Origin: an uncultured virus (IMG/VR IMGVR_UViG_3300028887_000111)
Lineage: Duplodnaviria > Heunggongvirae > Uroviricota > Caudoviricetes
Virus record (IMG/VR): IMGVR_UViG_3300028887_000111
Span: 52,740 to 72,739 of that record
Direction: 5' to 3' (one strand)
Length of the DNA stretch: 20,000 nt
A program made the position numbers and the translations under genes. Of the stretch, positions 431 through 20,000 are shown one piece after another (the first letter of the stretch is position 1; each line of letters opens with the position of its first letter). The notes under the pieces were generated by a model. It made no database searches. It was not told the DNA's origin and saw nothing but the letters and a program-made list of their open reading frames with translations.

Positions 431-516
431 TTAAATTCCTCCTTGTTTCTAATTTGTTACTCTGTCAGTCAATAAAAGTAAAGTTTTATTGGATAAATAG
501 AGCCACTTTTCGGCTA

Positions 517-1380
517 TTATACGTTACCCAATCCCTTTAAAATATGAGCGATTACATCAACTGTCCAACCATTACCTATGGCTGTGTATCTTGCTGTGTT
601 TGAAACGCAGCTCGTATACTCATCTGGCAGCGTTTGTAATCTTTCATATTCAAGAGGTGTGAGTTTTCTTGCTCTGCCATTATCCATTACTTTCTTTTGA
701 GTATTACCACCGCCACAAGTTGTAAGAGTATGGCACTTAAAAGCAGGATTAAAAATTCTTTTGTGAATATCGTGATTTTTAAAATCCATTATCGCACACA
801 CTTGTTTACTCATATCAATATTCGTCAACGGATAATTGTAGAAAAAATTTTCGTCAACATTCGTTTCCATAATATCTGCAAGAACCTTATTAGATTTCTC
901 ATACATCATATCTACAGGTATATTTGTCCAATAATAGCGAGGTCTACTTTGAGCAGAGAAATCTGCACTATCTATGAAGATTGGCTCACAGCCTAAACAT
1001 TCAGATATAACCTGTTTGCATTCATCCTTCATACTTGCCACATTTTCAAACAAGAAATATCTTGGCTTCATTTCTTCAAAAGCCCTTACAAACTCAAAAA
1101 ATAATTTGCTTTTACCATCAAGATTCTGTCTTGTCTTACTCTGTACGATGCTCAAAGACTGACACGGACTACCGCCAATAAGTAAATCAAAATTTGCGTA
1201 CTCTCTAAAATCCGCTGTTGTAACATCTCCTTTGTGCTCAATCTGAGGATAATTTTTTTCGCTTACTTTTATAGCGTTTGGCTCAATTTCATATGCAACA
1301 TATTTTTCTACTGGAATGCCCGCCCTTTCAAGTGCCACCATTCCACAACTTATGCCGTCAAAAAGACTTAATACTTTCAT
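517..1380 (-). CDS. DNA (cytosine-5)-methyltransferase, 287 aa
   Basis: Motif I LSLFDGI, motif IV GGSPCQ, motif VI FENV, motif VIII QSRPRYYW, motifs IX/X ERLQTLP...IGNGW; SD AAGGAG upstream. Confidence 0.95.
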   Translation of the reverse strand: MKVLSLFDGISCGMVALERAGIPVEKYVAYEIEPNAIKVSEKNYPQIEHKGDVTTADFREYANFDLLIGGSPCQSLSIVQSKTRQNLDGKSKLFFEFVRAFEEMKPRYFLFENVASMKDECKQVISECLGCEPIFIDSADFSAQSRPRYYWTNIPVDMMYEKSNKVLADIMETNVDENFFYNYPLTNIDMSKQVCAIMDFKNHDIHKRIFNPAFKCHTLTTCGGGNTQKKVMDNGRARKLTPLEYERLQTLPDEYTSCVSNTARYTAIGNGWTVDVIAHILKGLGNV

Positions 1381-1467
1381 TTTTCTCTCCTTATCACTAA
1401 TTTATTATTTTGCAATCACATAAAAGAACCGTTTTATTCAGTTTTGACCTACGTAGAATAGGCAAAT

Positions 1468-2205
1468 TCAGACTGCTTCGATTCTGTTTTTTGCAATCTC
1501 AAAATATTTTTCATTAAGCTCCATACCGATGAAGTCTCTGTTAAGACTTTTAGCCGCCACACCAGTTGAACCACTTCCCATAACGCAATCCAAAACCAAG
1601 TCACCTTCTCTTGTGTAAGTTTTAATAAGATATTCAAGTAAGGCTACTGGCTTCTGTGTGGGGTGAAATCCGCCTTTATCTCTTGTGAACTTCTGTATTG
1701 TCTTAGGGTGACGCTTGCCGTCCTTATTGTCTGTTACAATAGTTCCTAAACCGCCTTTCCAGTTGTCGCTCATTCTGCCCGACTTCTGGCAATACGGTGT
1801 ACCATCTGTCTTTTGAGGAAAATACTTCATAGGTGTTCTTGTGCCATTTGTTACTCTGCCCTTGCCAAAGATGAACACGAACTCGTGTATTCTGAATGGT
1901 TGAAGATTCACATTAGGAGCATTTGTTCCATTGTCTTTCTCCCATACCCAATCATATTTGTAGAGGTGTGGCATAAGATTGAACAACTGTACTCCAAACC
2001 TGAACGTGCCTGTAAGAGCAATACAACCGTCCTCTCTAATCAGACGTTCAAACTCGTGGCACACTCTTTCTAAATCGAATGACCTATCCCATTTATTGCC
2101 TGTCTCCTTATAGGGGAGGTCACAAAGGATTAAATCTACGCTGTTGTCGGGCAAATCTTTGAGATGCTCAAAGCAGTCGCCTTGAAATAACTGTATATTA
2201 CTCAT
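1468..2205 (-). CDS. DNA N6-adenine/N4-cytosine methyltransferase (beta class)
   Basis: GDC...DLILCDLPY (DPPY-type motif IV) precedes HPTQKPVALL and VLDCVMGSGSTG (motif I). Start moved from 2223 to ATG 2205 because SD GAAAGGAAG lies at 2211-2219. Confidence 0.93.
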   Translation of the reverse strand: MSNIQLFQGDCFEHLKDLPDNSVDLILCDLPYKETGNKWDRSFDLERVCHEFERLIREDGCIALTGTFRFGVQLFNLMPHLYKYDWVWEKDNGTNAPNVNLQPFRIHEFVFIFGKGRVTNGTRTPMKYFPQKTDGTPYCQKSGRMSDNWKGGLGTIVTDNKDGKRHPKTIQKFTRDKGGFHPTQKPVALLEYLIKTYTREGDLVLDCVMGSGSTGVAAKSLNRDFIGMELNEKYFEIAKNRIEAV

Positions 2206-2268
2206 TACATCTTCCTTTCGCATAAAAGATTTATTTTATCCAGTTTTTATAGCCTGTTTTTGGCTATT

Positions 2269-2814
2269 TTACGTTAGTGATTTTTCATATTTGTGCAGCT
2301 CTCGCATCTCCAATTTGCTCGGAAGGAAGTCTCTGCAAAAATATGCCGATCCAAAGTGGTTGCCCTTAGTGTATGTAGTCATATTGCCATTAGTGTGATA
2401 ATCTATTCTTGCATCAAAGCACAACATCTGAATCTCGTTTTGAAATATTTTAAACCGCTTCTTGCCCTGTATACTATTGCAAGGCAGAAGGATTGCAAAA
2501 GGTTTACCGAGTTCAAAAGCTCTCTGCAACACATCGTCCTTTTTACTAAAAGGCGGATTGCTTATCATTATGTCCCACTTCTCAGGTTCATAATTGAAGA
2601 AGTCTTGACCTTCAGCAAGAGAACTTCTAACTACGTCATACCCCCCCCGCTTGAATGTCTGGTAGAACGCCGACCATTCCTCGTCAAACGGACACCAAAT
2701 CGTCTTATCTTTTGGGATAAACTCAAGCAGAGGATCAACCGCATAGTAGGGAGTGTATACTTCATCTCCTGCCGCCGTGCGGTCACAAGTTAAATACCCA
2801 ACATTTAAAGGCAT
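2269..2814 (-). CDS. Small phage adenine-specific methyltransferase-like protein, 181 aa
   Basis: DEVYTP, IWCPFD, DFF and ISNPPFS (NPPF amino-MTase motif IV); SD AGGAG upstream of a TTG/ATG-region start. Confidence 0.8.
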   Translation of the reverse strand: MPLNVGYLTCDRTAAGDEVYTPYYAVDPLLEFIPKDKTIWCPFDEEWSAFYQTFKRGGYDVVRSSLAEGQDFFNYEPEKWDIMISNPPFSKKDDVLQRAFELGKPFAILLPCNSIQGKKRFKIFQNEIQMLCFDARIDYHTNGNMTTYTKGNHFGSAYFCRDFLPSKLEMRELHKYEKSLT

Positions 2815-2851
2815 TTTAATCTCTCCTCTCTAATCTAATAAAAGGCATATT

Positions 2852-3067
2852 TCAAGTTTTGTATGGTTCTGGAAGGAAACGCCATGCTACAACGTGAGTA
2901 TATTGTTTTAATCCTACCCAACGATATACATCAGACTCATCTCCGAGAATAGGAGAATAATTAGTCCAATACCCAATTTGTATTTCGCCACTGTCATCTG
3001 TAACAAGATAATGTTCACGTTCAGGCGGTGGAGAACCTATATACCACATATCTCTCATCTTTTTCAC
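2852..3067 (-). CDS. Small phage protein, DUF551-like (ATG at 3058 is a likely alternative start)
   Basis: W..PP....YLV...VVAWRFLPEPY pattern typical of DUF551-like phage proteins. Confidence 0.65.
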   Translation of the reverse strand: MKKMRDMWYIGSPPPEREHYLVTDDSGEIQIGYWTNYSPILGDESDVYRWVGLKQYTHVVAWRFLPEPYKT

Positions 3068-3094
3068 CTCACATAAAAGACACGTTTCATTCGT

Positions 3095-3289
3095 TCAATA
3101 CTCGTCAATATCTTCATCGGTAAAATGGCTATACAAAAATCTGATTTCTGCAATAGTTAATATTATTAGCCTTTCCGAATCATCGGTATAGTCGTTATAA
3201 CTGTGTGCTGAGCGGTCTTTCTTATCCGCTATCAGCTTATCAACTATGCTCTCCATTAGTTTTGTTTCTTCATCAGTCATTCTGTTCAC
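3095..3289 (-). CDS. Hypothetical protein, 64 aa
   Basis: ORF in operon orientation, overlapping the upstream gene's stop. Confidence 0.6.
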   Translation of the reverse strand: MNRMTDEETKLMESIVDKLIADKKDRSAHSYNDYTDDSERLIILTIAEIRFLYSHFTDEDIDEY

Positions 3290-3545: not shown

Positions 3546-3573
3546 TTCCTCCTAACTGTTTGAAATTCGTCTT

Positions 3574-4710
3574 TCAAACAACCTTGATGCCAGTAATTTC
3601 TTCAAACACACTTGCATCAAAATTAGGAATATCCTTGACTGCAACTCTTTCATCTTCTGTCATATTATCCCACATAATACCACAAGCTGTTTTGAAATCA
3701 ACCGATTTGAGATAACCGCCAGTTGTTTCGTGTTCAGGATGTGCTTCTTTTTCTTCCGCCGTCATATTCTCACTGTAAATCCACCAGTCGTTCTCATACT
3801 TCCAATCCATAGCTCTTACAGCTAAGTTGCTATTAAAAGCATTTCTGTCAATATCTAATGGCTTGTTGAAAGCGCATAACGGTTGCTCAATTGAATTAAA
3901 AAAGCCAGTAGAGAAATCACCGCTGTTCCAATCACCGCTGTTCCAATTGCCGCTGTTGCAATTACCGCTGTTGTAATCACCGCTGTTGCGATTGCCGCTG
4001 TTCCAATTACCGCTGTTGTAATCACCGCTGTTGTAATCACCGCTGTTGCAATTACCGCTGTTGTAATCACCGCTGTTGCGATTACCGCTGTTGTAATCAC
4101 CGCTGTTGTAATCACCGCTGTTGCAATTACCGCTGTTGCAATTACCGCTGTTGTAATCACCGCTGTTGCAATTACCGCTGTTGCAATTACCGCTGTTGTA
4201 ATCACCGCTGTTGCGATTACCGCTGTTGCAATTACCGCTGTTGTAATCACCGCTGTTGTAATCACCGCTGTTGCAATTACCGCTGTTGTAATCACCGCTG
4301 TTGCGATTACCGCTGTTGCAATTACCGCTGTTGTAATCACCGCTGTTGCGATTACCGCTGTTGCAATTACCGCTGTTGCGATTACCGCTGTTGCGATTGC
4401 CCGTACAGTCCTTTCCTGTATTGGCTAAATCAAGAACCTCGTGCCAAGTAAGCTCCCTTAAAATTACGATTTCATCTGTGACGGATTTATCGCCTTTAGT
4501 CTCAACATTACCGATAGCTTCGACTTCTGCAACCTTATTGTTGCTGTTAAAGCCGTAATAATTGAAGCAATCTGAGACCTTCCGGCAGAAGTGAAATCCT
4601 GCACCACACATCTCAATATTGCCATCGTGCTTGAAAGTTTTGCCAACCTCGTACTGAAAACCTCTGCAAGTCCAGTCAGGGTTGAACACTTTGTAGCCTT
4701 TAATACTCAC
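3574..4710 (-). CDS. Pentapeptide (xNSG[N/D]) repeat protein, 378 aa
   Basis: N-terminal KGYKVFNPDWTCRGFQYEVG...GFHFC domain, 32 NSG-containing pentapeptides, globular C-terminus; GTG start with SD AAGGAGG. Confidence 0.88.
   Translation of the reverse strand: MSIKGYKVFNPDWTCRGFQYEVGKTFKHDGNIEMCGAGFHFCRKVSDCFNYYGFNSNNKVAEVEAIGNVETKGDKSVTDEIVILRELTWHEVLDLANTGKDCTGNRNSGNRNSGNCNSGNRNSGDYNSGNCNSGNRNSGDYNSGNCNSGDYNSGDYNSGNCNSGNRNSGDYNSGNCNSGNCNSGDYNSGNCNSGNCNSGDYNSGDYNSGNRNSGDYNSGNCNSGDYNSGDYNSGNWNSGNRNSGDYNSGNCNSGNWNSGDWNSGDFSTGFFNSIEQPLCAFNKPLDIDRNAFNSNLAVRAMDWKYENDWWIYSENMTAEEKEAHPEHETTGGYLKSVDFKTACGIMWDNMTEDERVAVKDIPNFDASVFEEITGIKVV
3916..4395. repeat. Coding tandem repeat, 32 x 15 bp
   Basis: Unit AT(T/C)RCCGCTGTT+(GCA/GTA/GCG/CCA) repeated head to tail; 480 bp / 15 = 32. 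Confidence 0.97.
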
Positions 4711-4778
4711 TATTATTCCTCCTTAAAACTCAACTTTTATTTGGTTAATCATTACCGCTAATTTGTTGTCTTGTAAAT

Positions 4779-5845: not shown

Positions 5846-6116
5846 AAAGTTTGATTTTATTGCCAATTTAGCAACGTAGAATAGGCATTTCCCAGTGAAA
5901 GGAGAATGATAATGCAACCCATCTTCAAAGAGATGATTCAAATGTGGAGCGATTTAGGTTATCCTCTGCTGATAGAGGAAGGCAAGTATTGGCTTGAAAA
6001 CCACTTCGTCTGCGGATTTACAGCCGATGGTGAACTTCACAAGCTGTATAAATACAAGGTGGCAGACGATTTAAGCATTGAGATAACGCCTTACAAGTCG
6101 AATAAAATCAAACTTT
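5846..6116. mobile_element. Putative invertible DNA segment (271 bp) bounded by perfect 16-bp inverted repeats
   Basis: AAAGTTTGATTTTATT (5846-5861) is the exact reverse complement of AATAAAATCAAACTTT (6101-6116); inversion restores an in-frame fusion. Confidence 0.85.
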
Positions 6117-6118
6117 AA
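5906..6118 (+). CDS. Inverted N-terminal fragment (68-70 aa) of the PAPS-reductase-family gene
   Basis: Only credible + strand ORF in the window; SD AAAGGAG at 5898-5904 (ATG 5912 best spaced); ends at the right inverted repeat (NKIKL*). Confidence 0.85.
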   Translation: MIMQPIFKEMIQMWSDLGYPLLIEEGKYWLENHFVCGFTADGELHKLYKYKVADDLSIEITPYKSNKIKL

Positions 6119-6423
6119 TGTCTTGTCTTTACATCAGAAAAGTCAAACTTAGGTTTATTCTTTAATTTCTCGTTGCATTCATCAATGGCTTTGTGTAGAT
6201 CGGACTTCCTACCCCATTCAATATACCCTGCAATATTTGTGATAAGATAGAATATATACATTACTACCATAGGAATATTCATAGTGCCGAGAAAGTTTAC
6301 TCCCAACCACGCTATGTTCCCTAATATCCATATCCACCAGCCAGAGCGTTTCTTATGGGCGATAAGTACATTACCGCCCAAGCTGAATACGCTGCCGAGA
6401 ATTGAAAATATTAAGACTATCAC
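6115..6423 (-). CDS. Small membrane protein, PnuC / nicotinamide-mononucleotide-transporter-like, 102 aa
   Basis: Three hydrophobic segments; K.R.GWWIWILGN..W and NIAGYIEW patterns. Confidence 0.6.
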   Translation of the reverse strand: MIVLIFSILGSVFSLGGNVLIAHKKRSGWWIWILGNIAWLGVNFLGTMNIPMVVMYIFYLITNIAGYIEWGRKSDLHKAIDECNEKLKNKPKFDFSDVKTRH

Positions 6424-7244
6424 TTCTTGTTATCCTCTGCGATTATCTCTTTTGCAAGCTTCTGAGCTGCTTCTTCAAAGGCAATTTCTTTAGCTCTCTT
6501 GCGGAGAAGATAACGCTCGTGTCTTGCCTTACGACGCTCAACGTGCCATGCTTCGTGTTCCTGTTTTTCTTCTACTGTATTAAGAACCTTGCCACAGTAG
6601 ATACAAGTGCGTGATAATTCATCTTCACATCTATTCAATTTGACAGCTTCGGCGTATGCTTTGTAAAAATTACCTCCACAAATTGCATTCGCAAGAGCTT
6701 CAAGAACACCCTGTCTTTCATCATAATCTGCCTTATCACAAGTTGCAGAACCCTTAACGGTAGTGACCTTATCAAAAACATTGCCACTAAGCAACTCAAT
6801 ATTTGTTGTCATTGTCGGGATAGTGCCGTTGCAACTCTTATCCACTCTCGTTCCTTCTGTTACATAAAATGTAAATTTCATTGAATTTTTACCTCCATTT
6901 TTTGCCGATATACCGTCGTTTGAAAATGCGTTAAAATGTTCTGCTAACTCTTTATTTAATCTCTCTGCATATTCTTCGGCTTGTTTTTCATTAAACACAT
7001 ACTCCACATTCGGGAATAACACGGATCTAATAGCTACTGGTTCAAGCGTATCTCCCCTACACCACCAACCATGATTATTTTGGCAAAGACCACCGCAGCT
7101 ATGTTTATAACCACTTTCTTCAAAATCAACTGCATAATCACCACCTGAAGAAATGCCACGAATAATGCCTACTTCACCAACTTCGACATTATCAATGTCT
7201 CTTTGAACTACATAACGCACTCTGTCTCCAACTTTAAACTCCAT
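6420..7244 (-). CDS. Hypothetical protein with N-terminal SH3-like region and C2H2-type Zn finger, 274 aa
   Basis: FKVGDRVR...GII N-terminus; CIYC-x12-H-x3-H; SD AAAGGAG. Confidence 0.7.
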   Translation of the reverse strand: MEFKVGDRVRYVVQRDIDNVEVGEVGIIRGISSGGDYAVDFEESGYKHSCGGLCQNNHGWWCRGDTLEPVAIRSVLFPNVEYVFNEKQAEEYAERLNKELAEHFNAFSNDGISAKNGGKNSMKFTFYVTEGTRVDKSCNGTIPTMTTNIELLSGNVFDKVTTVKGSATCDKADYDERQGVLEALANAICGGNFYKAYAEAVKLNRCEDELSRTCIYCGKVLNTVEEKQEHEAWHVERRKARHERYLLRKRAKEIAFEEAAQKLAKEIIAEDNKK

Positions 7245-7273
7245 ATTAACACTCCTTTTAGACTTTAAAATGT

Positions 7274-7309: not shown

Positions 7310-7315
7310 ATTACT

Positions 7316-7344
7316 ATTATAACACATAAATATTAGAATGTCAA
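7316..7344 (-). promoter_or_regulatory. Consensus sigma70/sigmaA promoter
   Basis: Minus strand TTGACA (7344-7339), 17-nt spacer, TATAAT (7321-7316), with extended -10 TG. Confidence 0.85.
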
Positions 7345-7348
7345 TACC

Positions 7349-10300
7349 TTATTTAGACTTTCTATAAGAATTTAGATACCAATATTTTCTGCCGTTGTAC
7401 TCTCGTGCTGAGACTTGCTCCGCGTAGAATATGTCGCCCTTTTGCAGCTTGCACTTCTCGTACACAGCTTTCATCACCGTGAGGTCGCTATCCTTGCCTT
7501 TGCCGAGGAAAGTCGCTGAGACTTTGTATGCCCAGAGCTTGCCGTCAGACTTGCGCTTGCAGGGATAGACCGTGCGGACGTAGCCAACTCTACGCTCACT
7601 CTCCTTGCCACTTGCCGCGATGTAGCCCAAGTATTCAAGCTGGGCTTCTATCTTCTCCACGGCGGGTATATCCGTATTCGGCAGACTTGCCGCGTAGTCC
7701 TCTATGAGAACGCCGAAGTCGGCAAACTGATACGCGCTTGCTGTCTCTTTGGTCGCCAGTCGGTTAAGTTGCTCTATGGTGAACCGTTCTATCGCAGTCT
7801 TTTTAATCTGCGACTTGCTTACCCATTCGCCACCGTCACGTTTGAACAGCTTTTGGAATAGGTCGAATATTGCAAGGAGCTTTGCGCTGCCGCCAAATTC
7901 GCTGAAGAAGTCCAACCGGATAAGGATTTCAGTCTGACGGGTGTTGCAAGGGTTCACGCGGAGAAAGTCGAGGAAAGAACTGAATTGCTGATCTCGCATA
8001 TCGTAGAGCGCAGTCGCCACGGCTGAGTTAAGGAACTTGACCGAGCTGACGGACTTGTAGATCGTGTTGGTGGACTTGTCACAGGTGTAGCGGTCTGAGG
8101 AATGACGGAACTTGATAGGAGATAAGATGATACCGAAACTCGGCAATTCGCCTGTAAGAGAAGCTGTCTTATCTTCGTCCGAGCCGTAATTATTAAAGCA
8201 AACCGTATAATATTCTAATGGATAATGAGATTTGAGATATGCGCCATACAACATATCGTAGGCTGTGGCTACCGCATGAGGCGCGGCAAATCCGTATGAC
8301 ATACAGCTTTGTACGAGATTCCATATATCTTGGAACTTATCATCATTGCCGACCTGTTTAATCCAATTCTCGTGCAACCTATCCTCCAACTTGCTAAAAT
8401 CTTCGGGCTTTATTTTCTTCTTGCTGATTTTCTTTATAAGCCCTATTGATTCGGCAGGTGATACACCGAGCCATTCAAAGTATTGCATAAGGTTTTCTTG
8501 GAAAAGTATGAACGAGCCAGTCTCTTTTAAGACTTCATCAAACTGTGGACAGCCCGTGTCATACTTGGTTCTTGATATGAACATATCACGCCACGATTCA
8601 AATGACGGTCTAAGAGCCGCTGTGAACATTGCACACTCTCTCACGTTAGTTGCTTGATATTGTTTCATTAGTGAAGTTGCCCAATCTCCATCGACTTGAT
8701 TAAGTGTAGCGGTCAGTCCTTTTTTAAAAAGCTCAAATGTCTTATCGTCAAGAGCTTCATTGAGCTGCTGTATGCTCATAATAGGCATACCTATCATCTC
8801 AAAGGTTTCAGAGATTAACTTCCAAACAGAAACAATCAAGTAGTCATTTTTCAAAATTTTGTATTCGTCTGCTTCGGACGATGTTATCATAACACATAAA
8901 TTGTCACCTACTCTTACGACACCATACTCATAACGCAAGTCTTTGTTATCGAGAATATGAGCGCAAGGGTGAACCGAAGCAGATACTATCGCACCTACAT
9001 ATCGCTTACTTTCCTCGATTATCGGTTTCCACTTATTGTTATCGGCATACTTCTCAATATTTTTAGCAACATCATTGAACTCATCAAAAGCCAAACCGTG
9101 GGATCGGCAAACATTTCTAAAGGCTTCACCCTCTTGCATTGTGCCGTAAGCTATCATAGGATAACAACCGTGTTCGCCAAGTAGCTCTTTAGAGGCTTTC
9201 TGAAACGGTTCTTGCGATACTACGTTAAAATCTATGTCTGGGAGTGCTCTGTTCTCCAACAGCCTCGCAGTTGACATGAAGCGGCTCGCGTACAATTTAA
9301 CAGGTGATTTGAGCATATCAATCTGTGTCATACCTAAAAGCTTGTTTAAATAATAAGCTCCACATGAGCCTCTGCCTGTTCTTGTAAGAATACCACCGTA
9401 CTTATTAACCGCAAGGTCTGTATTCTTCTCATTAAATAAGAAGTAGTCTGCCGTGTTGATAGAGATTGTATCAGCAACAGTTTTTAACTCATCCTCTATC
9501 TCGGCAATATATTTTGGCTTATCGGCTTCGGATATATTTTCTTCTATGCAAGTCTTTTCACACGCTTTGTAAACGTGTTTGCGCAGTTCATCAACTCGCT
9601 CTTGTGGTGTAAGATTTGAATATATCGTAGGCATTTTAATCTCTTTGTCAAGCTGAATATCCTCACAACTCTCAAAGACAAAAGTGCTGTTCATAGCTTC
9701 GTCTATCTGTCGTGGTGACAAAACACCTTGATCTATAAATCTTTGATAGAGAGTGTTGCCGTCAGGATAGTCAAGCAAGAACTCATCTTCGTCGCCATAA
9801 TTAAGCCCTTTGCCCTCTAAGTAAGCCTTACGTTCAATCGCTTGCTCTGGATAAATATAGTGGCTATCTGTGGCGGCGATAAGTTTTAACCCGTACTGCT
9901 GTGCTATTTCAAGACATTTGATATTATGCTGTTTCTGCACTTCTACATTATGAGCCTGTACTTCAACAAACATATTCTCACCAAAGTGCCGTACTAACGG
10001 CTGAAATATGTTCTCAATAGCATCATCAGTCTTTAAAAGACCGGCGACACAGGCTGTAGACAGATATATGTCGTCCTTATCCAATGCCAGTAAATCATCA
10101 ATGAAGATACGGGGCTTGTAATAATAACCGTCAATATGAGCATGAGAGCTAACATAATTGACTTTCTTACGAGCCACATCGGTGCGCGGTATGATGATAA
10201 TGTGGTAATTAGATTTGTCCTTTTCTAAAGGATTGGCGACTATATAGCCCTCAATGCCAAACATACAGCGCAGACCATACTTATCGCACAAGGTTTTTGC

Positions 10301-10468: not shown

Positions 10469-10470
10469 CC

Positions 10471-11055: not shown

Positions 11056-11060
11056 ATTAA

Positions 11061-12956
11061 TCACGCTCCAAACACTTCTTGTTCCGTTTCTTTTATTTGC
11101 TCCATTACCACGCATTCAGGTGGGTTCTCAGCCAAGCAGTTGCCCTTATCCCAAGAATACACGCGATTTAACTCGTCCTCGTCAGTGAAAAATCTGCGGC
11201 TTGGATAGTCAAAATTCAGATTAACCGATACTCCATTTTTGCCGAGGTATCTGTCCTTAATTATCTTAACGGTAGCACCGCCCTGTGCGTTGCGCTCCAT
11301 ACCAAGCATACGGCAAGAGAGATTAGCGATATTCATTGAGCCGGAGGCATCGTCCATACCGAGACTTTCATTGGTCTTTCTTGAGTGTGCCACGAGGAAT
11401 ACTGCCACGTTGTACGTCAAGGCAAATCTTACGCACTTGCGGACGATCTCTGTCTGGCGCATAAGGTCAGAGTCACAGCCTTTACAGGATATGCAAGTCA
11501 AGTTATCAAGTATCACAAGGGAGCAACCGTAGCGGCGCACACATATCTCGGCAGTCTTGAGAATGTCGTCTATGTCAATGCTTTCTCCGTCTTTGTAGAG
11601 ATAAAGCTGTCCTTTGTAGAAGTCCAATATCTCTTTACGGGCAGCAGGGGTAACACGATAATACGGAGTTCCCTCCTTGCTGATAAAAGAATTGATATTG
11701 CGACGACCTGCTATGCTGTACATAATCCAGTTGGCTTGGAGCTGATTTGAGAGTTCCTGCGAGTACATAAATAACGACTTGCCGTCATTTAGTGTTTCCG
11801 CAGTCAATTGTCCCATGAGCGATGTTTTACCTGACGCTGCTTTAGAAAATACGGTTGTTAGAGAGCCGGAAAAATTACGCATTAAGACTTTATCCAGCTC
11901 TTTCAGTCCAAAGGTAACACCGTCCACTTCGTCGAGGTTATAATCTCTGACGTTGGAGAAGTCTACGACGGTAGGGATAGGCGCATTTATTGCCTCTAAA
12001 ACACATTCCAGCACCTTTTCTTTGCCGTACCAATACATAACTTCGTTGGTGTCTGAGACTTTAATCTCTGTGCCATCAGGCTTCTTGAATGAAGTTGGGT
12101 ATTGAACCGCGCGGCATCGCCATTGTCCCAATCTCGCCACAACAGCCTTATTGAATTTGCGACCTGCGGCATCGTTATCGCCAGCCACTACTATGGTGTC
12201 AAACTGTTCAAGGAAGTCCCACTGAGCGTCTATCCAAGACATATCGGCACACCCAAAAGGAATGCTGACTGAGTTCTTGTAGCCAGACTCAATAGCAGCG
12301 AGACAGTCAATAGCCCCCTCTGTTATCAATAAAGGCTCTGACGGATTGGCAAGATGCTGTAAAAACAGAACGCTTTCGTGGTCAGTATCTTTTTGAACCC
12401 AACATTTTGCACCTTTGCCCTTTTCTACTTTATGGGCAGGACGGAGCTTGACCGTCTTGAGAACGTCATTGCTGTCAATGAATGGAAACTCAATATTGCC
12501 GTTACCGTCACATGAAAGTCCGGCATAGTCAACAACAGCCTTGCTGATGCCACGCTTTGCCAGATATTCGTAAGCGGGTGTCATATCAGCGTGAGTAAGG
12601 GTAGGATAGCGATAAGTCTTATCCTTTTTTACGCCGACCTCCGGCATTGGTATATCCATACCGGCAAGCTCAAAGACCTTTGTAGCAGCTTCGTTGAACG
12701 TCATTCCTTTGCCTTGTATATAGGAATCGAGGAGATCAACGCTCTTGCCGCAAGAAAAACAATGAAACCTCAGTCTCTTTTGGTCAAAAATCAGACTCGG
12801 AGTTTTCTCGCTGTGCCAACAGCACAATGCTTTTTTATTCTTGCTGTCATACTGCTCAAGAGAAAGAACATCAGCCATTATATCGGCGGCATTTATGCCT
12901 ATTTTCTCTTTTGCCTCCGCTATAAGTTCCTTATCTATCATCTTCATCCACCCCAC
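11061..12956 (-). CDS. Bifunctional DNA primase-helicase (Zn finger + TOPRIM + SF4 helicase)
   Basis: CCWHSEKTPS...CFSC Zn finger; ITEGAID and GDNDAAG TOPRIM; Walker A AASGKTS; Walker B ILDNL; VAHSRK. Confidence 0.92.
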   Translation of the reverse strand: MGWMKMIDKELIAEAKEKIGINAADIMADVLSLEQYDSKNKKALCCWHSEKTPSLIFDQKRLRFHCFSCGKSVDLLDSYIQGKGMTFNEAATKVFELAGMDIPMPEVGVKKDKTYRYPTLTHADMTPAYEYLAKRGISKAVVDYAGLSCDGNGNIEFPFIDSNDVLKTVKLRPAHKVEKGKGAKCWVQKDTDHESVLFLQHLANPSEPLLITEGAIDCLAAIESGYKNSVSIPFGCADMSWIDAQWDFLEQFDTIVVAGDNDAAGRKFNKAVVARLGQWRCRAVQYPTSFKKPDGTEIKVSDTNEVMYWYGKEKVLECVLEAINAPIPTVVDFSNVRDYNLDEVDGVTFGLKELDKVLMRNFSGSLTTVFSKAASGKTSLMGQLTAETLNDGKSLFMYSQELSNQLQANWIMYSIAGRRNINSFISKEGTPYYRVTPAARKEILDFYKGQLYLYKDGESIDIDDILKTAEICVRRYGCSLVILDNLTCISCKGCDSDLMRQTEIVRKCVRFALTYNVAVFLVAHSRKTNESLGMDDASGSMNIANLSCRMLGMERNAQGGATVKIIKDRYLGKNGVSVNLNFDYPSRRFFTDEDELNRVYSWDKGNCLAENPPECVVMEQIKETEQEVFGA

Positions 12957-13668
12957 TATAAACGCAATTCAGTCTGCAAAGGCTCTCACAGTAAAACTTA
13001 TCAACCTTGCACTCCCAGTCAGTCGTAGCCAGTATTGTATCAACGCCAACCTTGAACCAGTCTATCGCCGCCGTGTAGTCGCCCTCTTTGAACAGCTCCT
13101 CGTCCCACGGCTCATCGCACCGGAACTTATTGAATACTAACTTATACGGAAACTCGCCGTACATTTCCTTTATGCGGTAAGCGTACAGATAAAGCTGGCG
13201 CATATAGTCGGCACGTTCCTTCTTGGACTTCCAAGCACCGTGCGACTTGTAATCTATGAGCACAATTCCGTTCTCGTCACGCACTATTAAGTCCGCAAAT
13301 CCGATAAACTTATGCCCACCTATCACAGCTTTCAGCTCTTGCTCTACCCCGATTATCTCACCGGCAATGCCGTCAAAATTCTGGAAGTATGCAAGAGTCT
13401 TGTCGTAGAAAGCCTTATACATATTAAAATATGGGAACTTCTCAGTCACCCACATATCATATTCTTGTTCAAATGTGTCCGCAAGCTCAAACTCGTAAAG
13501 CTCACCCTTCGCCCAGCGTTCTAAAATGCTGTGAGCCAGTGAACCGTGTTGTGCAAAGGCATTATCGCCCTCAGTTATATCCTCAACATATTTCAGATAG
13601 AACGCCCACGGACAAGTCTCGTAGAGTTTGAGAGAGCTATACGACCACTCTTTTTTAGTTAAGTCCAC
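12931..13668 (-). CDS. PD-(D/E)XK exonuclease (RecB/AddB/Cas4-like), 245 aa
   Basis: WSYSSL..CP, G...H, GFADL...IDYKS, QLYLYA, C-terminal Cys cluster. Confidence 0.88.
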   Translation of the reverse strand: MDLTKKEWSYSSLKLYETCPWAFYLKYVEDITEGDNAFAQHGSLAHSILERWAKGELYEFELADTFEQEYDMWVTEKFPYFNMYKAFYDKTLAYFQNFDGIAGEIIGVEQELKAVIGGHKFIGFADLIVRDENGIVLIDYKSHGAWKSKKERADYMRQLYLYAYRIKEMYGEFPYKLVFNKFRCDEPWDEELFKEGDYTAAIDWFKVGVDTILATTDWECKVDKFYCESLCRLNCVYSGVDEDDR

Positions 13669-13696
13669 CTTACCACTCCTTTTATATTATAGGCTT

Positions 13697-13714
13697 GCCG
13701 CCCCGAAGGGCGGC
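13697..13714 (-). terminator. GC-rich stem-loop with UUCG loop after ssb (terminator or mRNA-stabilising hairpin)
   Basis: GCCGCCC-TTCG-GGGCGGC on the minus strand; no U-tract follows on that strand. Confidence 0.5.
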
Positions 13715-13721
13715 TTTACCA

Positions 13722-14126
13722 TTAGAAAGGAATATCTTCTGAAGCTGTCTCTGTTTCGGCAGGTGTCTCAGCCTTTGCCGGAGCTGCCTGTGTCTCAGTC
13801 TTAGCACCACCGTCGCCCTTAGAGCCGACAAACTCCACCTTGTCTACCCACACATCAGTTGTGAAATGCTTAGTGCCGTCCTTCTCGTAAGAGCCGGTTT
13901 TGATATTGCCCTCAAGAGCTATCTGCTTGCCCTTGCTGAAATATTTAGCCAGAAATTCGCTTGTCTTGCCCCAAGCTACGCAACGGATAAAGTCGGTTGC
14001 CTTATCCTTGCCAGCCCCTATATTTCTATCCACAGCAATGTTAAATGTAGCCGTGGAAGTGCCACCCTGAGTCTGTCTTACGTCAATATCGCTTGAGATT
14101 CTGCCTATAAGAATTACCTTATTCAT
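13722..14126 (-). CDS. ssb: Single-stranded DNA-binding protein
   Basis: MNKVILIGR..., F.IAVDR, DFIRCVAWGK, acidic tail ending DIPF. Confidence 0.96.
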   Translation of the reverse strand: MNKVILIGRISSDIDVRQTQGGTSTATFNIAVDRNIGAGKDKATDFIRCVAWGKTSEFLAKYFSKGKQIALEGNIKTGSYEKDGTKHFTTDVWVDKVEFVGSKGDGGAKTETQAAPAKAETPAETETASEDIPF

Positions 14127-14143
14127 TACTTAAATAACCTCCA

Positions 14144-14866
14144 TTACTTAGATTTCTTCTCGGACTGAAAGTCCTTAATGTCCAGTTTGTCAAGCTCCTC
14201 GTTAAGCCTTTCAAGAAGCTCATCGCTCAGATTCATCGGGTTCTTGCAACCGCCAAAGTTTGCCTGTAACCAAGCAGCCAGCTTATCGCGGTCATAGCCG
14301 TCCTTAATCTTAGCCTTAAACTTGCCAATAGCGTCCTGTCTGTCAAGTCCGTCCAACACCTTCTTATCCTTTGCAAGATCAGTGTAGTCATCCTTTAACC
14401 ATGATGATAAGCCATATCCGAGGTACGCTATATTCTTTGCCACGCAACGCCTGAGAGCCTTGTTTACGTCTGTGCTCTTTACGTTTGCCGCAGGAACAGC
14501 CTGATTGCGGTTGTCCATTATAGGCAGGGTGCAGTATTCCTCAATGCCCTGTGACGGTATCTTAACGCAGGTCTTAACCCAACAGGTATTACCGTCTGTG
14601 CCGTAGGGAAGTTCAACCTCGACAAGCTCACTATGGTATGTCTCCCCTTCTGCTGTTTTAGAGGCAAGCACCGAGACTAACTTCTGAGTCTTAAAAGTAC
14701 ACTCCTCAATAATGGCATCAGGATAATACATACGCAGTTTTTCGATTGAACGCGCCCACGGAACATAAGTAACAGAATACTTACCGTCGCCCTTAGACAC
14801 CACATCATTTGTTGTGTCGATGCTCGCCAGCGTTTCAAACACCGACTTCTTCTTTGTTTCTGACAT
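14144..14866 (-). CDS. Single-strand annealing protein (Sak/Rad52-like, DUF1071-type)
   Basis: TYVPWA, LPIMDNRNQA, VNKALRRCVAKNIA..GYGL; located next to ssb and an exonuclease. Confidence 0.8.
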   Translation of the reverse strand: MSETKKKSVFETLASIDTTNDVVSKGDGKYSVTYVPWARSIEKLRMYYPDAIIEECTFKTQKLVSVLASKTAEGETYHSELVEVELPYGTDGNTCWVKTCVKIPSQGIEEYCTLPIMDNRNQAVPAANVKSTDVNKALRRCVAKNIAYLGYGLSSWLKDDYTDLAKDKKVLDGLDRQDAIGKFKAKIKDGYDRDKLAAWLQANFGGCKNPMNLSDELLERLNEELDKLDIKDFQSEKKSK

Positions 14867-14903
14867 AGTTTACTTCCTTTCTAATAGTATATGCAAACTG
14901 TTT

Positions 14904-15146
14904 TCACAGATTTTGCCAAACATTGTTTATCTCAGTCGCTTTCCTCGCCTGTTCCTCAGTCCCATACTGCCGGATAGTGTACAGGATATTCTCTGCGACT
15001 GCCTTATTGGTTATCTTCAGCGGATTTCTCTCGCCGCCATTAAGAGCCGCGATTATATCATATAGGTACAACCGCAGTTCCTTTTTGTCTTTAGCGGCGG
15101 CTATGCGCTCCTTGCAAAGCTCGACTATCTGCTGTCTGATGTCCAC
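14904..15146 (-). CDS. Hypothetical protein, 80 aa
   Basis: GTG start with SD GGGAGG; operon orientation. Confidence 0.65.
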   Translation of the reverse strand: MDIRQQIVELCKERIAAAKDKKELRLYLYDIIAALNGGERNPLKITNKAVAENILYTIRQYGTEEQARKATEINNVWQNL

Positions 15147-16152: not shown

Positions 16153-16179
16153 GTGTTCACCTCCAATAAAACGTAGGTT

Positions 16180-16377
16180 TCAAGTTTTGTTTACATAATC
16201 CCTGAATATCTGTATCATCTCATCTTCTTCGGGAAAGAAAATATCTCTCTTGGTCTTAGCTTGCCAATCAGCCAACACATTGACTATCATCTGACCGAAA
16301 CGCCAATCAGGAAAGTTCTTCTTATGTATCTCTTTAAGCTCGTCGTAGAACTTATCAAGTCTGTTTATGTCTCTCAT
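16180..16377 (-). CDS. Hypothetical protein, 65 aa (MRDINR...PDWRFGQ type)
   Basis: SD GGAGGTG; MRD.NR...PD.RFGQ...F.ED pattern. Confidence 0.75.
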   Translation of the reverse strand: MRDINRLDKFYDELKEIHKKNFPDWRFGQMIVNVLADWQAKTKRDIFFPEEDEMIQIFRDYVNKT

Positions 16378-16403
16378 GGTTCACCTCCGATAAAATGTAG
16401 CTT

Positions 16404-16637
16404 TCATATCTTTTCAAATTCTTCCTTTAACTTTATCCACTCGTCTATATACCATTGTTTTACAGCCTTTAAACAATCATCAGGCAAAAGGTCTATGTAG
16501 TCGCTCACACCATCGCTACACACTCCATGTATGTTAAAATGGTCGTACTGATTGTCATTGAGCATTTTAATTATATCATCGTACTCTGACATTTTCTTTC
16601 TTGTAGCAATAGCCTTATCAAGTTTATCATTGGTCAT
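16404..16637 (-). CDS. Hypothetical protein, 77 aa
   Basis: SD GGAGGTG; flanked by dyad sites. Confidence 0.65.
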   Translation of the reverse strand: MTNDKLDKAIATRKKMSEYDDIIKMLNDNQYDHFNIHGVCSDGVSDYIDLLPDDCLKAVKQWYIDEWIKLKEEFEKI

Positions 16638-16666
16638 TCATTGTTCACCTCCAATAAAATGCAACT

Positions 16667-16987
16667 TTAATATACAACCCAGTCCATCGGGTGTTCTGCC
16701 GCAACTCTGTTCCCGTTTGAAAATGGACAATGGTCGAGAAAAGCACACTTATTACAGTAGTAATTATTTTTGCACTCTGTTTTAATCAGGCTAAACGGAT
16801 TTGCCTTCCACTCTTTAAGTTCCGTAAGCCATTCTGCAATCTGCCTAGAATAAGCAGAACACTCAGAACACTCATCTATATACTCTTTAATTGGAGTACC
16901 CGCCAAATTATTTTTAATATTTTTAATTATTGCTTCTTGCTGATCTGCAAGTCTTTCACAATCGTTTATAGTTTGTTCAAGCGTCAT
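16667..16987 (-). CDS. Hypothetical Cys-rich protein (likely start MTLEQ)
   Basis: SD AGGAG at 16996-17000; RQIAEWLTELKE motif shared with 17686-18087. Confidence 0.65.
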   Translation of the reverse strand: MTLEQTINDCERLADQQEAIIKNIKNNLAGTPIKEYIDECSECSAYSRQIAEWLTELKEWKANPFSLIKTECKNNYYCNKCAFLDHCPFSNGNRVAAEHPMDWVVY

Positions 16988-17642: not shown

Positions 17643-17685
17643 TTCTCCTTTGTTTCAAATTCGTCTTTGCCGTCTAAGACACGTT

Positions 17686-18087: not shown

Positions 18088-18172
18088 CTTCATCCTCCTC
18101 ATAAAAGTGAAATTTCATGTAATTTTTAGAGCCACTTTTTGGCTATTCTACGTCGTTATTTTACCGATAAAA

Positions 18173-18775
18173 TTATTCTTTCATCTTTGACAAATGCTTT
18201 TTGTATTCTTCAGATGTTAGAATTTCATCCATAATTGGTTTTAATTCTGTTGTATTATAAGAAGCCCCACATATTCTTCTATAATTTTCGCCTACATAAT
18301 ATCCAATTGTAACCTTGCCATAATAAACATAAGACATAAGTTTAGGCGTGATTCTTTTCACAACTGGGATAGTCATATGAAATATATAATCACTATCGGT
18401 TGTAAATTCTATCCATCTGGAATACTGTTCATATCCTTCATAGCACATTCTAATTATCTCGCAAGTATCAACTTGAAAAATTTCTTTGATTTCATTTACA
18501 AGGTATTCATACGCATCTTTTTCCTTATACTTTTTACGCTTATCGTATTTTTGAGTTCTTATATCAAGCCATTCTTTTGCATCATCAAAGTAATAATCAA
18601 CCCATAAATAATTGACGTTCTTTCTGATTGTATAAGCTACATCTTCATCTGCAAGCTGACTTAGTTTCTGATGCCTTTCTAATTTTTTATGTTCATATGC
18701 TGATAGTTCTAAAGCATCTGTAATGGCTTTAACACCATCTATTGTTGTGCCATTGTAAATCGTGTCGTAATCCAC
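18173..18775 (-). CDS. Hypothetical protein, 200 aa
   Basis: GTG start with SD AAGGAGGT; low GC. Confidence 0.7.
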   Translation of the reverse strand: MDYDTIYNGTTIDGVKAITDALELSAYEHKKLERHQKLSQLADEDVAYTIRKNVNYLWVDYYFDDAKEWLDIRTQKYDKRKKYKEKDAYEYLVNEIKEIFQVDTCEIIRMCYEGYEQYSRWIEFTTDSDYIFHMTIPVVKRITPKLMSYVYYGKVTIGYYVGENYRRICGASYNTTELKPIMDEILTSEEYKKHLSKMKE

Positions 18776-18803
18776 AATAAACCTCCTTAATAAAACAAGA
18801 CTT

Positions 18804-19238
18804 TCATTTTATTGCATCACTTATAACAGATATAAAATCTGACCACTGACGCTTCTTTTTATCATTTTCAACTGTTTCATTATCATTTCGGTGATACCAA
18901 TATCCACCAGCTTTATTAAGAATATCATCTGGAAGTTTTCTATGTTTACAACATCTATATCCACGCATAATGATTTTCTTATTATTCCTATACTGAATAA
19001 AGTGAGCAATTCCGTCACAAGAAATATCTGAGTCTGATTCCGTATGATAATCTACATAATCAATTTCCAACAACTCTCTTGCTTGAAGATTTTCTTTGTA
19101 ACAATAATAACGTGAAATCCCATCATTATATATGCACTCACTTGGGCAATAAATATAGAGAACGTTGTCATCCTCGGTCTGCAAAATCAACATATCATCA
19201 AACCATCTATACATATAGTTTTTAACATTTACTCTCAT
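18804..19238 (-). CDS. Hypothetical protein, 144 aa
   Basis: SD GAGGTG; overlap with the upstream stop. Confidence 0.65.
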   Translation of the reverse strand: MRVNVKNYMYRWFDDMLILQTEDDNVLYIYCPSECIYNDGISRYYCYKENLQARELLEIDYVDYHTESDSDISCDGIAHFIQYRNNKKIIMRGYRCCKHRKLPDDILNKAGGYWYHRNDNETVENDKKKRQWSDFISVISDAIK

Positions 19239-19522
19239 AAATATCTCACCTCATGTACGGCAATATCTTTCAGCAATTCTTCATTAGAAGTCCATCGCCA
19301 AAAGCTATTACTAATCATTTCTAACTTATTTCTATAAATGTCTCTCAAATCTTCTGCCATTATCCGTTTACCACATATCCTTGCTGAGTTGCCCATACGA
19401 ATATAACTGTACATATATCTAAGAGCCTTTTCGTATTCCGAGCAAATCAGTCTAAAACCACACTGGTGACAACCCGTAAGACTCATAGGCGTGATCTCAT
19501 CATAAGGACAAACTCGTTTCAT
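19235..19522 (-). CDS. Hypothetical Cys-containing protein, 95 aa
   Basis: SD GAGGTG; CP...C..C....C. Confidence 0.6.
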   Translation of the reverse strand: MKRVCPYDEITPMSLTGCHQCGFRLICSEYEKALRYMYSYIRMGNSARICGKRIMAEDLRDIYRNKLEMISNSFWRWTSNEELLKDIAVHEVRYL

Positions 19523-19525
19523 AGT

Positions 19526-19906
19526 TTACACCTCATCGTAAAAGTCATCGTGATCAGTCGGCTCGTCAAAATAATCTGGGGCTTCGCTGCAATCATACCA
19601 ACAGTATTCGACAAGTCTTAGTTCATTAGGCATAACGATTCTGCGTTTAAGAAGTTTTCTAAACTTGCTACCATACTTTAAATACTCAGCATTGCCTAAC
19701 CGTCTTGTTCTGCCCCAATCACCTTCAGCATCATTTCTGGAAAATAGAACATAGTCAATAAAGAAATCGGATGTAGGAGCGATTTCAAACTCTGTTTTCT
19801 CAAGCAAGTCTGATATACCCCAACCGTCATCAACACCAAATATCTCACAGGCTTCTTCTTCTGATATTTTCATTCTTATGACTTTTTTGTGGCAGTAGTC
19901 ACTCAT
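19526..19906 (-). CDS. Hypothetical acidic protein, 126 aa
   Basis: SD AGGGGAG; WYDCSEAPDYFD C-terminus. Confidence 0.7.
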   Translation of the reverse strand: MSDYCHKKVIRMKISEEEACEIFGVDDGWGISDLLEKTEFEIAPTSDFFIDYVLFSRNDAEGDWGRTRRLGNAEYLKYGSKFRKLLKRRIVMPNELRLVEYCWYDCSEAPDYFDEPTDHDDFYDEV

Positions 19907-19921
19907 AATAAAACTCCCCTT

Positions 19922-20000
19922 TCATTTAGCCAGTAACTTTTGCTTTTCTTGTTCACATTTTTTAGCATCTGCTCCTGAACGGGTAAAGTCATGAGCTTTC
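19922..20000 (-). CDS. 3' end of a gene entering from beyond the window
   Basis: Open frame ...KAHDFTRSGADAKKCEQEKQKLLAK* whose TGA lies in the dyad site at 19908-19925. Confidence 0.45.
   Translation of the reverse strand, partial: KAHDFTRSGADAKKCEQEKQKLLAK

Follow-up and report, generated by a model that had tools for sequence, protein, structure and literature searches.

The window analysed here is a stretch of 20,000 nucleotides from an uncultured virus (Caudoviricetes) and forms the last 20 kb (positions 52,740 to 72,739) of the 72.7-kb record IMGVR_UViG_3300028887_000111 (G000). Every window gene is encoded on the - strand. Junctions between its open reading frames (ORFs) carry an 18-nucleotide element in which two six-base arms enclose a six-base spacer. 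The original prediction, made from the DNA letters alone, took these elements for crossover sites of an integron-like phage cassette system distinct from attC integrons. In the order of transcription, the window starts with small early ORFs without a family match (20000 to about 15100), continues with a replication core, and ends, behind a consensus sigma-70-type promoter (7344-7316), with an accessory block. The accessory block encodes a PnuC-like fragment, a PAPS-reductase-like protein, a pentapeptide-repeat protein and at least four DNA methyltransferases.

7349..15146, - strand: replication core, no junction elements; Pol III alpha-like polymerase, primase-helicase, PD-(D/E)XK exonuclease, SSB, Sak-type annealing protein, two small ORFs
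7316..7344, - strand: sigma-70-type promoter, a consensus match only (TTGACA, 17 nucleotides, TG-n-TATAAT; 12/12 matches); separates the polymerase gene from the accessory block

Record G000 covers part of a longer, complete phage genome, G001, which measures 104.7 kb, has direct terminal repeats and is 99.996% identical to G000 across 22.6 kb. The window has no match in the phage GenBank collection. Strong GGAGG ribosome-binding sites, the presence of the phage sequences in cattle-gut sequencing runs and the binning of one relative together with a Eubacteriales genome point to a host among rumen Firmicutes. A scan of viral contigs for the motif plus a ribosome-binding site (RBS) matched 103 stretches. 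Motifs were counted in 80 loci of these; most had single chance matches, but a second complete phage of 99.4 kb (G002) was among them. G001 and G002 are mosaic, with segments that are 91-100% identical, replication genes that are 66-74% identical, and much that is unalignable. The motif is also present in metagenome contigs L034-L037, whose polymerase is 88-90% identical. The array is absent from the polymerase relatives L038, L039 and L186 (80-84% identical), and the motif is lacking in polymerase relatives at 47-65% identity. Among 26 loci in viral contigs collected by their polymerase, it was found only in the same phage. Contig evidence comes from assembled contigs of four cattle-gut runs and concerns the parts of the window that these cover.

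An Oriented Element at Early and Accessory Gene Junctions

All 14 sites of the original prediction are present at their + strand coordinates. Because all window genes lie on the - strand, the element is to be read there. Its coding-strand form is W-T-[A/G/T]-A-A-A, six variable bases, T-T-T-T-A-T, which amounts to a stop codon followed by AA-N6-TTTTAT, usually immediately 5' of an RBS. It had been described as a conserved dyad. The spacer is indeed exactly six nucleotides long at every site, but the arms are not symmetric: the RBS-side arm is almost invariably TTTTAT, and the opposite arm is degenerate. Information content is limited to six positions per arm, and apart from the RBS no conservation was found outside the 18-mer.

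The pattern WTRAAA-N6-TTTYAW matches the 72.7-kb record 22 times per strand, against 1 match for the control read backwards. The oriented pattern WT[AGT]AAA-N6-TTTTAW has 20 coding-strand matches in the leftward module, where 0.21 are expected (about 100-fold; 200 second-order Markov simulations, simulated maximum 3), and only 6 on the other strand. Junction occupancy was counted in the complete genome G001 with ORF calls made in this analysis.

Early plus accessory module: motif at 16 of 27 junctions
Very early module: 7 of 27
Replication core: 0 of 7
Nucleotide metabolism module: 1 of 20
Leftward (structural and other) modules: 2 of 59

Genome-wide, the motif is enriched at junctions of the early and accessory modules and is nearly absent from core and late junctions. 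The motif-free interval that had been proposed from 6.4 to 16.1 kb of the window holds for the replication core junctions, but a match lies at 6864-6881. Units between motifs mostly comprise one to three ORFs, as proposed, but one comprises four by the ORF calls of this analysis.

Eleven of the 14 predicted sites end 1-23 nucleotides ahead of the next start codon, directly 5' of the RBS; two end 39-41 nucleotides ahead of a start codon and one has no start nearby. In G001, 14 of 20 motifs start 29-34 nucleotides before a start codon. The upstream gene has its stop codon in the left arm (positions 2-4 or 3-5) at 7 of the 14 sites by window ORF calls, and the G001 calls add an eighth (19908). 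Across relatives TGA, TAA and TAG all occur at arm positions 2-4 (e.g., A-TAG-AA). The intergenic spaces measure only about 25-35 nucleotides. The window has three further matches: one inside an ORF (4458), one forming the first six codons of an ORF (6864) and one at a gene end (18167). In the very early region, some motifs are found where a gene has its 3' end, and their degenerate arm is on the opposite side.

Spacers Label Positions Shared Across Genomes

The spacers differ among the junctions of one genome, yet they are conserved by position across genomes. The variable spacer of the original prediction is therefore variable within a genome only; between genomes it is a position-conserved label, or tag. 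When G002 was compared with G001, 15 of 16 G002 sites paired with a G001 site at no more than one spacer mismatch (1.7 by chance), and the order of the pairs was perfectly collinear. At 9 of these 15 pairs both 60-nucleotide flanks were at random-level identity and the flanking ORFs had no common family. We then searched relatives for the exact AA-N6-TT cores of 28 G001 tags, with reversed tags as the control; in G002 the search covered 47.4 kb.

G002: 27 exact hits; 24 of 28 G001 tags, 23 in G001 order; reversed-tag control 4
L200: 16 hits; 16 of 28 tags, 15 in order; control 1
L198: 12 hits; 11 of 28 tags, 10 in order; control 2
L037: 10 hits; 10 of 28 tags, 9 in order; control 1
L035: 8 hits; 8 of 28 tags, 6 in order; control 3
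L186: 1 hit; 1 of 28 tags, 1 in order; control 0
L038: 0 hits; 0 of 28 tags, 0 in order; control 1
L039: 0 hits; 0 of 28 tags, 0 in order; control 1

About 28 short, tagged elements at gene junctions make up a scaffold that is fixed and collinear in at least five phages, and most ORFs between the elements are unrelated. The motifs look like fixed "addresses" that bound exchangeable ORF slots. Tags with one mismatch were scarcely above control; therefore tags are either exactly kept or unrecognisable. Outer arm positions vary between genomes in 13-23 of 27 tag families per position; the tag itself is held invariant within a family by the search pattern. At larger distance tags drift: GTTTGA behind the PnuC-like ORF corresponds to GATTTA in L034 and L036, and GATTCG to AATCGG in L035. 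The length of six nucleotides is retained wherever tags drift.

Gene Content Changes and Similarity Ends at the Elements

Gene content between the tags turns over strongly. For only 8 of the 44 G001 ORFs at 38-57 kb did tblastn give a match in the parts of G002 that were covered; for 43 ORFs of this region, L198 has matches to 8 and L200 to 10, at 27-99% identity. In 43 same-tag pairs from six genomes, similarity on the left is lost at motif positions 0-3 in 28. On the right, 21 pairs lose it at positions 15-20 and 12 pairs at positions 22-34, from the RBS to the start codon. Similarity usually ends within three nucleotides of the motif edges, so that the predicted coincidence of motif and breakpoints between relatives is borne out to within a few nucleotides. 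Where G001 and G002 share a short, collinear island of identity whose flanks are unrelated, the island is in most cases a copy of the motif and not other intergenic sequence (counted by eye, very early region included). Exact identity tracts at these orphan islands span 14-28 nucleotides.

Two cattle-gut contigs show other arrangements of the same slots. The 41.8-kb contig of run X3 keeps the 22-nucleotide islands 18097-18118 and 18785-18806 with other sequence between them, and it joins the ORF found at window 3273-3539, at its ATG, behind the TTTCAC island. In the run X7 contig the GTTGAG and GACGAA elements abut, sharing four bases, and are followed by an ORF of family F23, which lies behind CGTGTC in G001. 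The X7 arrangement, seen in one contig at depth 7 and composed from reported pieces, would be an empty slot that keeps both labels. No recombination product, such as a circle or a hybrid site, was seen in the assembled contigs, which cannot show circles. The sole empty slot in public contigs has both neighbouring motifs side by side.

The Individual Elements

The elements of the window are given below with their spacers as read on the - strand.

19908..19925, - strand, GGGGAG: spacer doubles as the RBS of ORF 19526-19906; stop of the upstream ORF in the left arm; spacer at the collinear place in G002 and L200
18790..18807, - strand, GTCTTG: TGA of ORF 18804-19238 in the left arm; start of ORF 18173-18775 14 nucleotides downstream; spacer kept in G002, L198 and L200 amid unrelated flanks
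18167..18184, - strand, GAATAA, not listed earlier: 13 nucleotides upstream of the ACGTAGAAT-plus-hairpin element; the following slot has no ORF; in L037 three ORFs separate the GAATAA and TTTCAC elements
18101..18118, - strand, TTTCAC: 13 nucleotides ahead of the start of ORF 17686-18087; island of 26 identical nucleotides in G002, both flanks unrelated
16654..16671, - strand, GTTGCA: TAA stop in the left arm
16390..16407, - strand, GCTACA: TGA stop in the left arm
16166..16183, - strand, CCTACG: TGA stop in the left arm; last element before the replication core; homology to L037 starts 3 nucleotides into the element
6864..6881, - strand, TTTACA, motif match: codes for MKFTFY, with which the C-terminal part of ORF 6420-7244 probably begins; G002 homology starts exactly here
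6102..6119, - strand, GTTTGA: at the stop of ORF 6115-6423 (PnuC-like fragment); no - strand ORF start close downstream
4723..4740, - strand, GTTGAG: 12 nucleotides ahead of the start of the pentapeptide-repeat ORF 3574-4710
4458..4475, - strand, TCGTAA, motif match: inside ORF 3574-4710; probably not a junction element
3560..3577, - strand, GACGAA: TGA stop in the left arm; against G002, upstream flank 97% identical, downstream flank unrelated
3073..3090, - strand, CGTGTC: ahead of the 68-amino-acid ORF 2852-3058 (family F23)
2838..2855, - strand, TATGCC: ahead of the EcoRI-like methyltransferase ORF 2269-2814
2222..2239, - strand, TAAATC: perfect dyad arms; ahead of the N6/N4 methyltransferase ORF 1468-2205; preceded by a ACGTAAAAT-plus-hairpin element (2251-2274); against G002, upstream flank 98% identical, downstream flank unrelated
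1420..1437, - strand, CGGTTC: 39 nucleotides ahead of the C5 methyltransferase ORF 517-1380; spacer also in G002, L035 and L037, each time with different flanks
472..489, - strand, CTTTAC: 41 nucleotides ahead of a C5 methyltransferase ORF whose end lies past window position 1; preceded by a ACGTATAAT-plus-hairpin element (501-524)

A second junction element, of the general form ACGTA-n-AAT plus hairpin, accompanies some of these sites.

18130..18153, - strand: ACGTAGAAT plus the short hairpin AGCC-N7-GGCT; -10-box-like
501-524 and 2251-2274, - strand: further copies
Starts at 1451 and 5874, + strand: reversed copies
G000 50568 (-) and 48399 (+), beyond the window: further copies

The second element usually lies 9-13 nucleotides upstream of a motif and occurs in both orientations. 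One reversed copy precedes the small + strand ORF 5906-6118. In L035 the element is about 80% conserved, in other contexts.

Recombination Genes of the Phage

A tyrosine recombinase had been expected elsewhere on the complete genome; G001 and G002 each encode two.

G001 22663-23691 (= L031:4666-5691), - strand, and G002 71774-72301: Xer-like tyrosine recombinase, 342 amino acids, 89% identical between G001 and G002
G001 48600-49601 (= L032:12600-13598), + strand: divergent early tyrosine recombinase, 333 amino acids; phrog_216 match at 3e-13, missed by Pfam

In NCBIfam, the Xer-like protein best matches XerC, XerD and XerA, all far below cut-off, and against the integron-integrase model it scores 23 bits, where the cut-off is 265 bits. 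About 170 nucleotides upstream of its gene lies a conserved inverted repeat with 18-nucleotide arms and a 9-nucleotide gap, a candidate for its own site; no junction motif was found near the gene. The gene of the 333-amino-acid recombinase lies mid-array in the early operon, behind a sigma-70-type promoter. Its family has 111 clusters in phage contigs of roughly 100 kb, and the catalytic R..K..H-x-x-R..H..Y is conserved across 23 aligned members. No link was found between either tyrosine recombinase and the motif. Contigs L188-L195 have an early recombinase closer to that of G001 (42-55% identical); under the strict pattern they hold 0-2 motifs, and mostly share few tags, with the exception of L190, which shares 7. 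L198 at about 12560-12600 and L193 at about 12300-12350 carry what we take to be a sequence like the Firmicutes LexA (SOS) box. The window or genome further encodes a Sak-type annealing protein, a PD-(D/E)XK exonuclease, an SSB and a RuvC-like resolvase.

Linkers, Recombination Sites, or Regulatory Signals

We tentatively favor, with a probability of about 0.4, the reading that the elements are expression-linked junction linkers used for short-homology exchange. The stop codon with its AA, the exact distance of six nucleotides and TTTTAT would form an expression signal of the early and accessory operons, either a site for a protein, whether of phage or host origin, or a context for termination and re-initiation. 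The whole island of 12-30 nucleotides would then serve as a linker where co-infecting relatives swap ORFs by short-homology recombination. Proteins that the phage itself encodes could carry out the exchange: the Sak-type annealing protein, PD-(D/E)XK exonuclease, SSB and RuvC-like resolvase. The unique tag would hold the exchange in register and block deletions between junctions of one genome. The exchange within the island, the enzymes involved and the expression role of the constant parts are inferred. Linkers of this kind agree with islands that reach the ATG in about a quarter of pairs, with ORFs that move between tags, and with gene indels at motif-less junctions. The PeSL cassettes of T4-type phages offer a precedent (PMC2839356), and the exact tracts of 14-28 nucleotides can be set beside the pairing minimum of 23-27 bp quoted for Red-beta (PMC3945230).

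Several observations weigh against such linkers. Homology-driven exchange in general does not specifically predict an invariant tag beside varying outer arms. ORF families F13, F17, F22, F23 and F25 change tags, which in-register exchange leaves unexplained, and homologous genes of L038, L039 and L186 occur without the motif. An expression role of the constant parts gains no support from the hairpin and arm covariation tests described below, and 6 of the 20 G001 sites do not adjoin an RBS. Many islands, with 14-18 exact nucleotides, also fall below the minimal efficient pairing segment of Red-beta, quoted as 23-27 bp (PMC3945230).

It is possible, but unlikely, that the elements serve dedicated site-specific recombination, in which a phage tyrosine recombinase binds the arms and exchanges strands across a 6-bp overlap. 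A match of the overlaps would be required, so only like-tagged junctions of co-infecting genomes would recombine, position by position, in the manner of heterospecific lox sites. The exact 6-bp spacer and the A-rich and T-rich inner arms of the dyad agree with this, as do tags that are unique in each genome and collinear between genomes. Exchange that depends on overlap identity also predicts a spacer that is invariant within a tag family while the outer arms vary, and boundaries at the motif edges. Both G001 and G002 have the two recombinases of 342 and 333 amino acids, and a RuvC-like resolvase is encoded. On the other side, the arms are poor in information, the left one being N plus stop codon plus AA, and nothing is conserved beyond the 18-mer. 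Family F23 stands behind three spacers: CGTGTC in G001, GAAAAC in L035 and GACGAA in the run X7 contig. The empty slot is tandem and not hybrid, 12 of 43 islands extend to the RBS or ATG, one contig joint lies at an ATG, and gene indels occur at motif-less junctions. The relatives with the closer early recombinase (L188-L195) have next to no strict motifs and, L190 apart, few tags, and the Xer-like gene adjoins a different inverted repeat. The originally predicted phage cassette system thus survives in part. Motif-bounded slots with differing gene content and breakpoints at the motif are found, but arms of about 11 bp are absent, F23 is not bound to one spacer, indels also occur at junctions without the motif, and relatives that keep the early recombinase mostly lack the array. 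We regard as doubtful the specific proposal that the tags are overlaps of heterospecific sites at which the early tyrosine recombinase crosses like-tagged junctions, which would make the array a position-coded phage analogue of an integron.

A purely regulatory element is likewise improbable, though far from negligible. The motif would be an operator-like dimer site, on the lines of mycobacteriophage stoperators or the 17-bp dyads of Cluster O, or a translation signal in the mRNA like the start-associated sequences (SAS), and breakpoints would collect there because viable recombinants break between ORFs. Fixed orientation, short intergenic location, overlap with stop codons and confinement to non-structural operons speak for it; stoperators (PMC9283540) and the SAS and ESAS elements (PMC3203893) are described in like terms. 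The distance of 29-34 nucleotides from motif start to start codon at 14 of 20 G001 sites fits as well. In three cases the motif lies 13 nucleotides upstream of the ACGTAGAAT element, at the position of a -35 box, and the arms vary independently, as half-sites might. With intergenic spaces of about 25-35 nucleotides, selection alone would confine breakpoints. However, regulation predicts conserved arms and a drifting spacer, and the tag families show the opposite. Exact tags persist amid unrelated ORFs in genomes whose shared proteins are 34-99% identical, which requires that the tag be under constraint or that exchange at the island recur. The collinear orphan islands of G001 and G002, by eye mostly motifs, also disagree with a mere confinement of breakpoints to intergenic sequence. 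No candidate motif-binding protein was identified; the conserved small early proteins have no family match.

Chance, through the AT-richness of intergenic sequence combined with stop codons and U-rich leaders, can practically be dismissed as the origin of the elements: the arms are pure A/T, and an unrelated 132-kb provirus (G003, the record of L076; 34% G+C) has 26/28 matches to the palindromic WTDAAA-N6-TTTTAW against 4/3 for the control, but chance leaves unexplained the 20 matches where the second-order Markov model expects 0.21, the exact six-nucleotide distance everywhere, the occupancy of only 2 of 59 leftward-module junctions, and tags that, measured against reversed-tag controls, are conserved and collinear across genomes. 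The excess in G003 may reflect a general A-tract/T-tract bias; arrangements of an A-tract followed by a T-tract are common in AT-rich DNA. A small remainder of the probability goes to some other explanation.

Readings Tried and Set Aside

A self-folding RNA hairpin was rejected. The 18-mers fold at 0 to -2.6 kcal/mol and wider windows do no better than shuffles. Covariation between the arms is absent, with Watson-Crick pairs at positions 1/18 in 22 of 40 cases (23.3 expected) and at positions 3/16 in 10 of 40 (12.0 expected). No Rfam family was found in the window at gathering thresholds. A sigma-70 promoter at the motif was also rejected: none coincides with it, and the consensus scan gave a total of 50 where shuffles gave 51.3. 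The TTTTAT arm is too near the RBS to leave a leader. A relay by mini-ORFs (ATG AAA NNN NNN TTT TAT, or M-K-x-x-F-Y, bridging stop and start) is unconvincing, since a frame-0 stop within -12..+6 of the next start occurs at 25 of 47 junctions versus 17 of 47 for frame 2.

G001 encodes a 915-amino-acid protein (29932-32679, - strand; L031:11935-14679) that matches the Pfam RdRP family PF05183 at 2.5e-8 and is possibly a YonO-like single-chain RNA polymerase. A promoter for such an enzyme is unlikely at the motifs because the YonO of SP-beta uses a single promoter, which is late (PMC5467207), and the motifs lie in early and accessory operons.

The original prediction set the elements apart from attC integrons, and rightly so. 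The likeness is that both kinds of site mark the 3' ends of ORFs that lack promoters and share one orientation, and that a stop codon may fall within the site. An attC site is 57-141 bp long, has paired cores and travels with its cassette. The motif has only 18 bp and stays with the position, not the gene; membership in attC arrays fails because the site does not travel with the gene. Identical tags have unrelated ORFs on both sides, and the ORF families F13, F22, F23 and F25 stand behind or before different tags. No attI, Pc promoter or integron-type integrase was identified.

Classical recombinase core sites such as dif and loxP have inverted arms of 11-13 bp around a 6-8-bp overlap that must match between partners. 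The present element resembles them in having inverted arms around a short overlap, and its exact 6-bp spacer, with identical tags at collinear junctions, would fit as an overlap, a fit confined to this feature. Its arms are far shorter and more degenerate. The two inverted arms of about 11-13 bp are not found here because the left arm is largely N, stop codon and AA.

Known Systems and Significance

Stoperators are 13-bp asymmetric sites without a variable centre, bound by a monomeric immunity repressor. Those of Cluster A mycobacteriophages (PMC9283540; PMC6550527) resemble the present elements in their many copies, short intergenic spaces and single orientation; only location and orientation are shared. 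In T4-type phages, recombination between conserved regulatory cassettes known as PeSLs (promoter-early stem-loop cassettes) shuffles ORFans (PMC2839356). Like our elements, PeSLs are concentrated in variable regions, flank ORFs of unknown function and mark boundaries of insertion, deletion and replacement, and they were proposed as linkers for targeted modular shuffling (PMC2839356). PeSLs are about 100 bp long and combine a sigma-70 promoter, which is strong, with a terminator formed by a stable G+C stem-loop, whereas the element here has a core of 12-18 bp without either. We therefore do not class it as a PeSL, although it too flanks variable ORFs and coincides with indel and replacement boundaries between relatives. 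A conserved six-nucleotide tag of its own at each junction is not described for PeSLs in the excerpted text (PMC2839356).

The SAS and extended SAS (ESAS) of Cluster K mycobacteriophages occur in a single orientation before start codons of varied gene families, within the non-structural half of these genomes, and a stop codon may lie inside them; ESAS are imperfect inverted repeats with a variable spacer and one arm nearer to the consensus, for which an RNA hairpin is unsupported (PMC3203893). In all this they are like the present element. However, SAS contains the Shine-Dalgarno sequence and our motif lies 5' of it; ESAS has 17-bp arms and a 4-13-bp spacer, and our motif has 6-bp arms and a spacer of always 6 (PMC3203893). 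Position-specific conserved spacers are not mentioned for either in the excerpts used (PMC3203893). The 17-bp dyads of Cluster O mycobacteriophages (7-N3-7) number more than 30 per genome, many of them in the short intergenic spaces of one operon, and some of the indels that distinguish relatives have a copy on either side; a binding protein that acts as a dimer was suggested (PMC4351075). These dyads differ in their invariant G+C-rich arms, a 3-nucleotide spacer that is mostly AAA or TTT, the lack of a clear orientation and a location inside genes for about a third of the copies (PMC4351075). Junction repeats with position-specific spacers conserved in order across genomes were not found in the literature searched or in the excerpts used.

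How single genes are swapped precisely at phage gene boundaries is an old open question. Modular theory holds that linker sequences guide the exchange, and the alternative is illegitimate recombination plus selection. With a fixed tagged scaffold and unrelated ORFs between the tags, the linker question becomes directly testable. If the tags direct exchange, by either mechanism, the array would be a natural system for in-register cassette swapping. It would then bear on the turnover of anti-defence genes in gut phages and might offer a model for phage engineering. Were the heterospecific-site reading true, the phage would have ordered slots for exchanging host take-over genes, methyltransferases and other counter-defence genes.

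Other Observations

DNA methyltransferase genes are unusually dense at window 1-2814 and G001 73577-76579, where C5, N6/N4 and EcoRI-like enzymes occur; G001 has at least six. Radical-SAM and PAPS-reductase-like genes accompany them, and most of these genes occupy separate scaffold slots. The pentapeptide-repeat/DUF7666 ORF (window 3574-4710, - strand) contains an internal nucleotide repeat with a 45-nucleotide period, visible as a ladder of self-matches at 89-95% identity; the protein has 378 amino acids in G001 and 308 in G002. Directly after the last motif of the accessory block, G001 has a gene for a TnpB-family RNA-guided endonuclease (76635-77837, + strand; L074:4635-5837; NF040570, 1e-56), which is preceded by a reversed copy of the ACGTAAAAT-hairpin element. 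Other mobile elements in G001 are a LAGLIDADG-domain intein within NrdD, the anaerobic ribonucleotide reductase (83441-85393), and the GIY-YIG/NUMOD1 and HNH-AP2 endonucleases at 6381-7835 and 32676-33641. A patch of about 100 nucleotides in G001 (86353-86450) is 100% identical to G002; its first position coincides exactly with that of a motif match within a 65-amino-acid ORF, and it is flanked by sequence that is about 75% identical or less.

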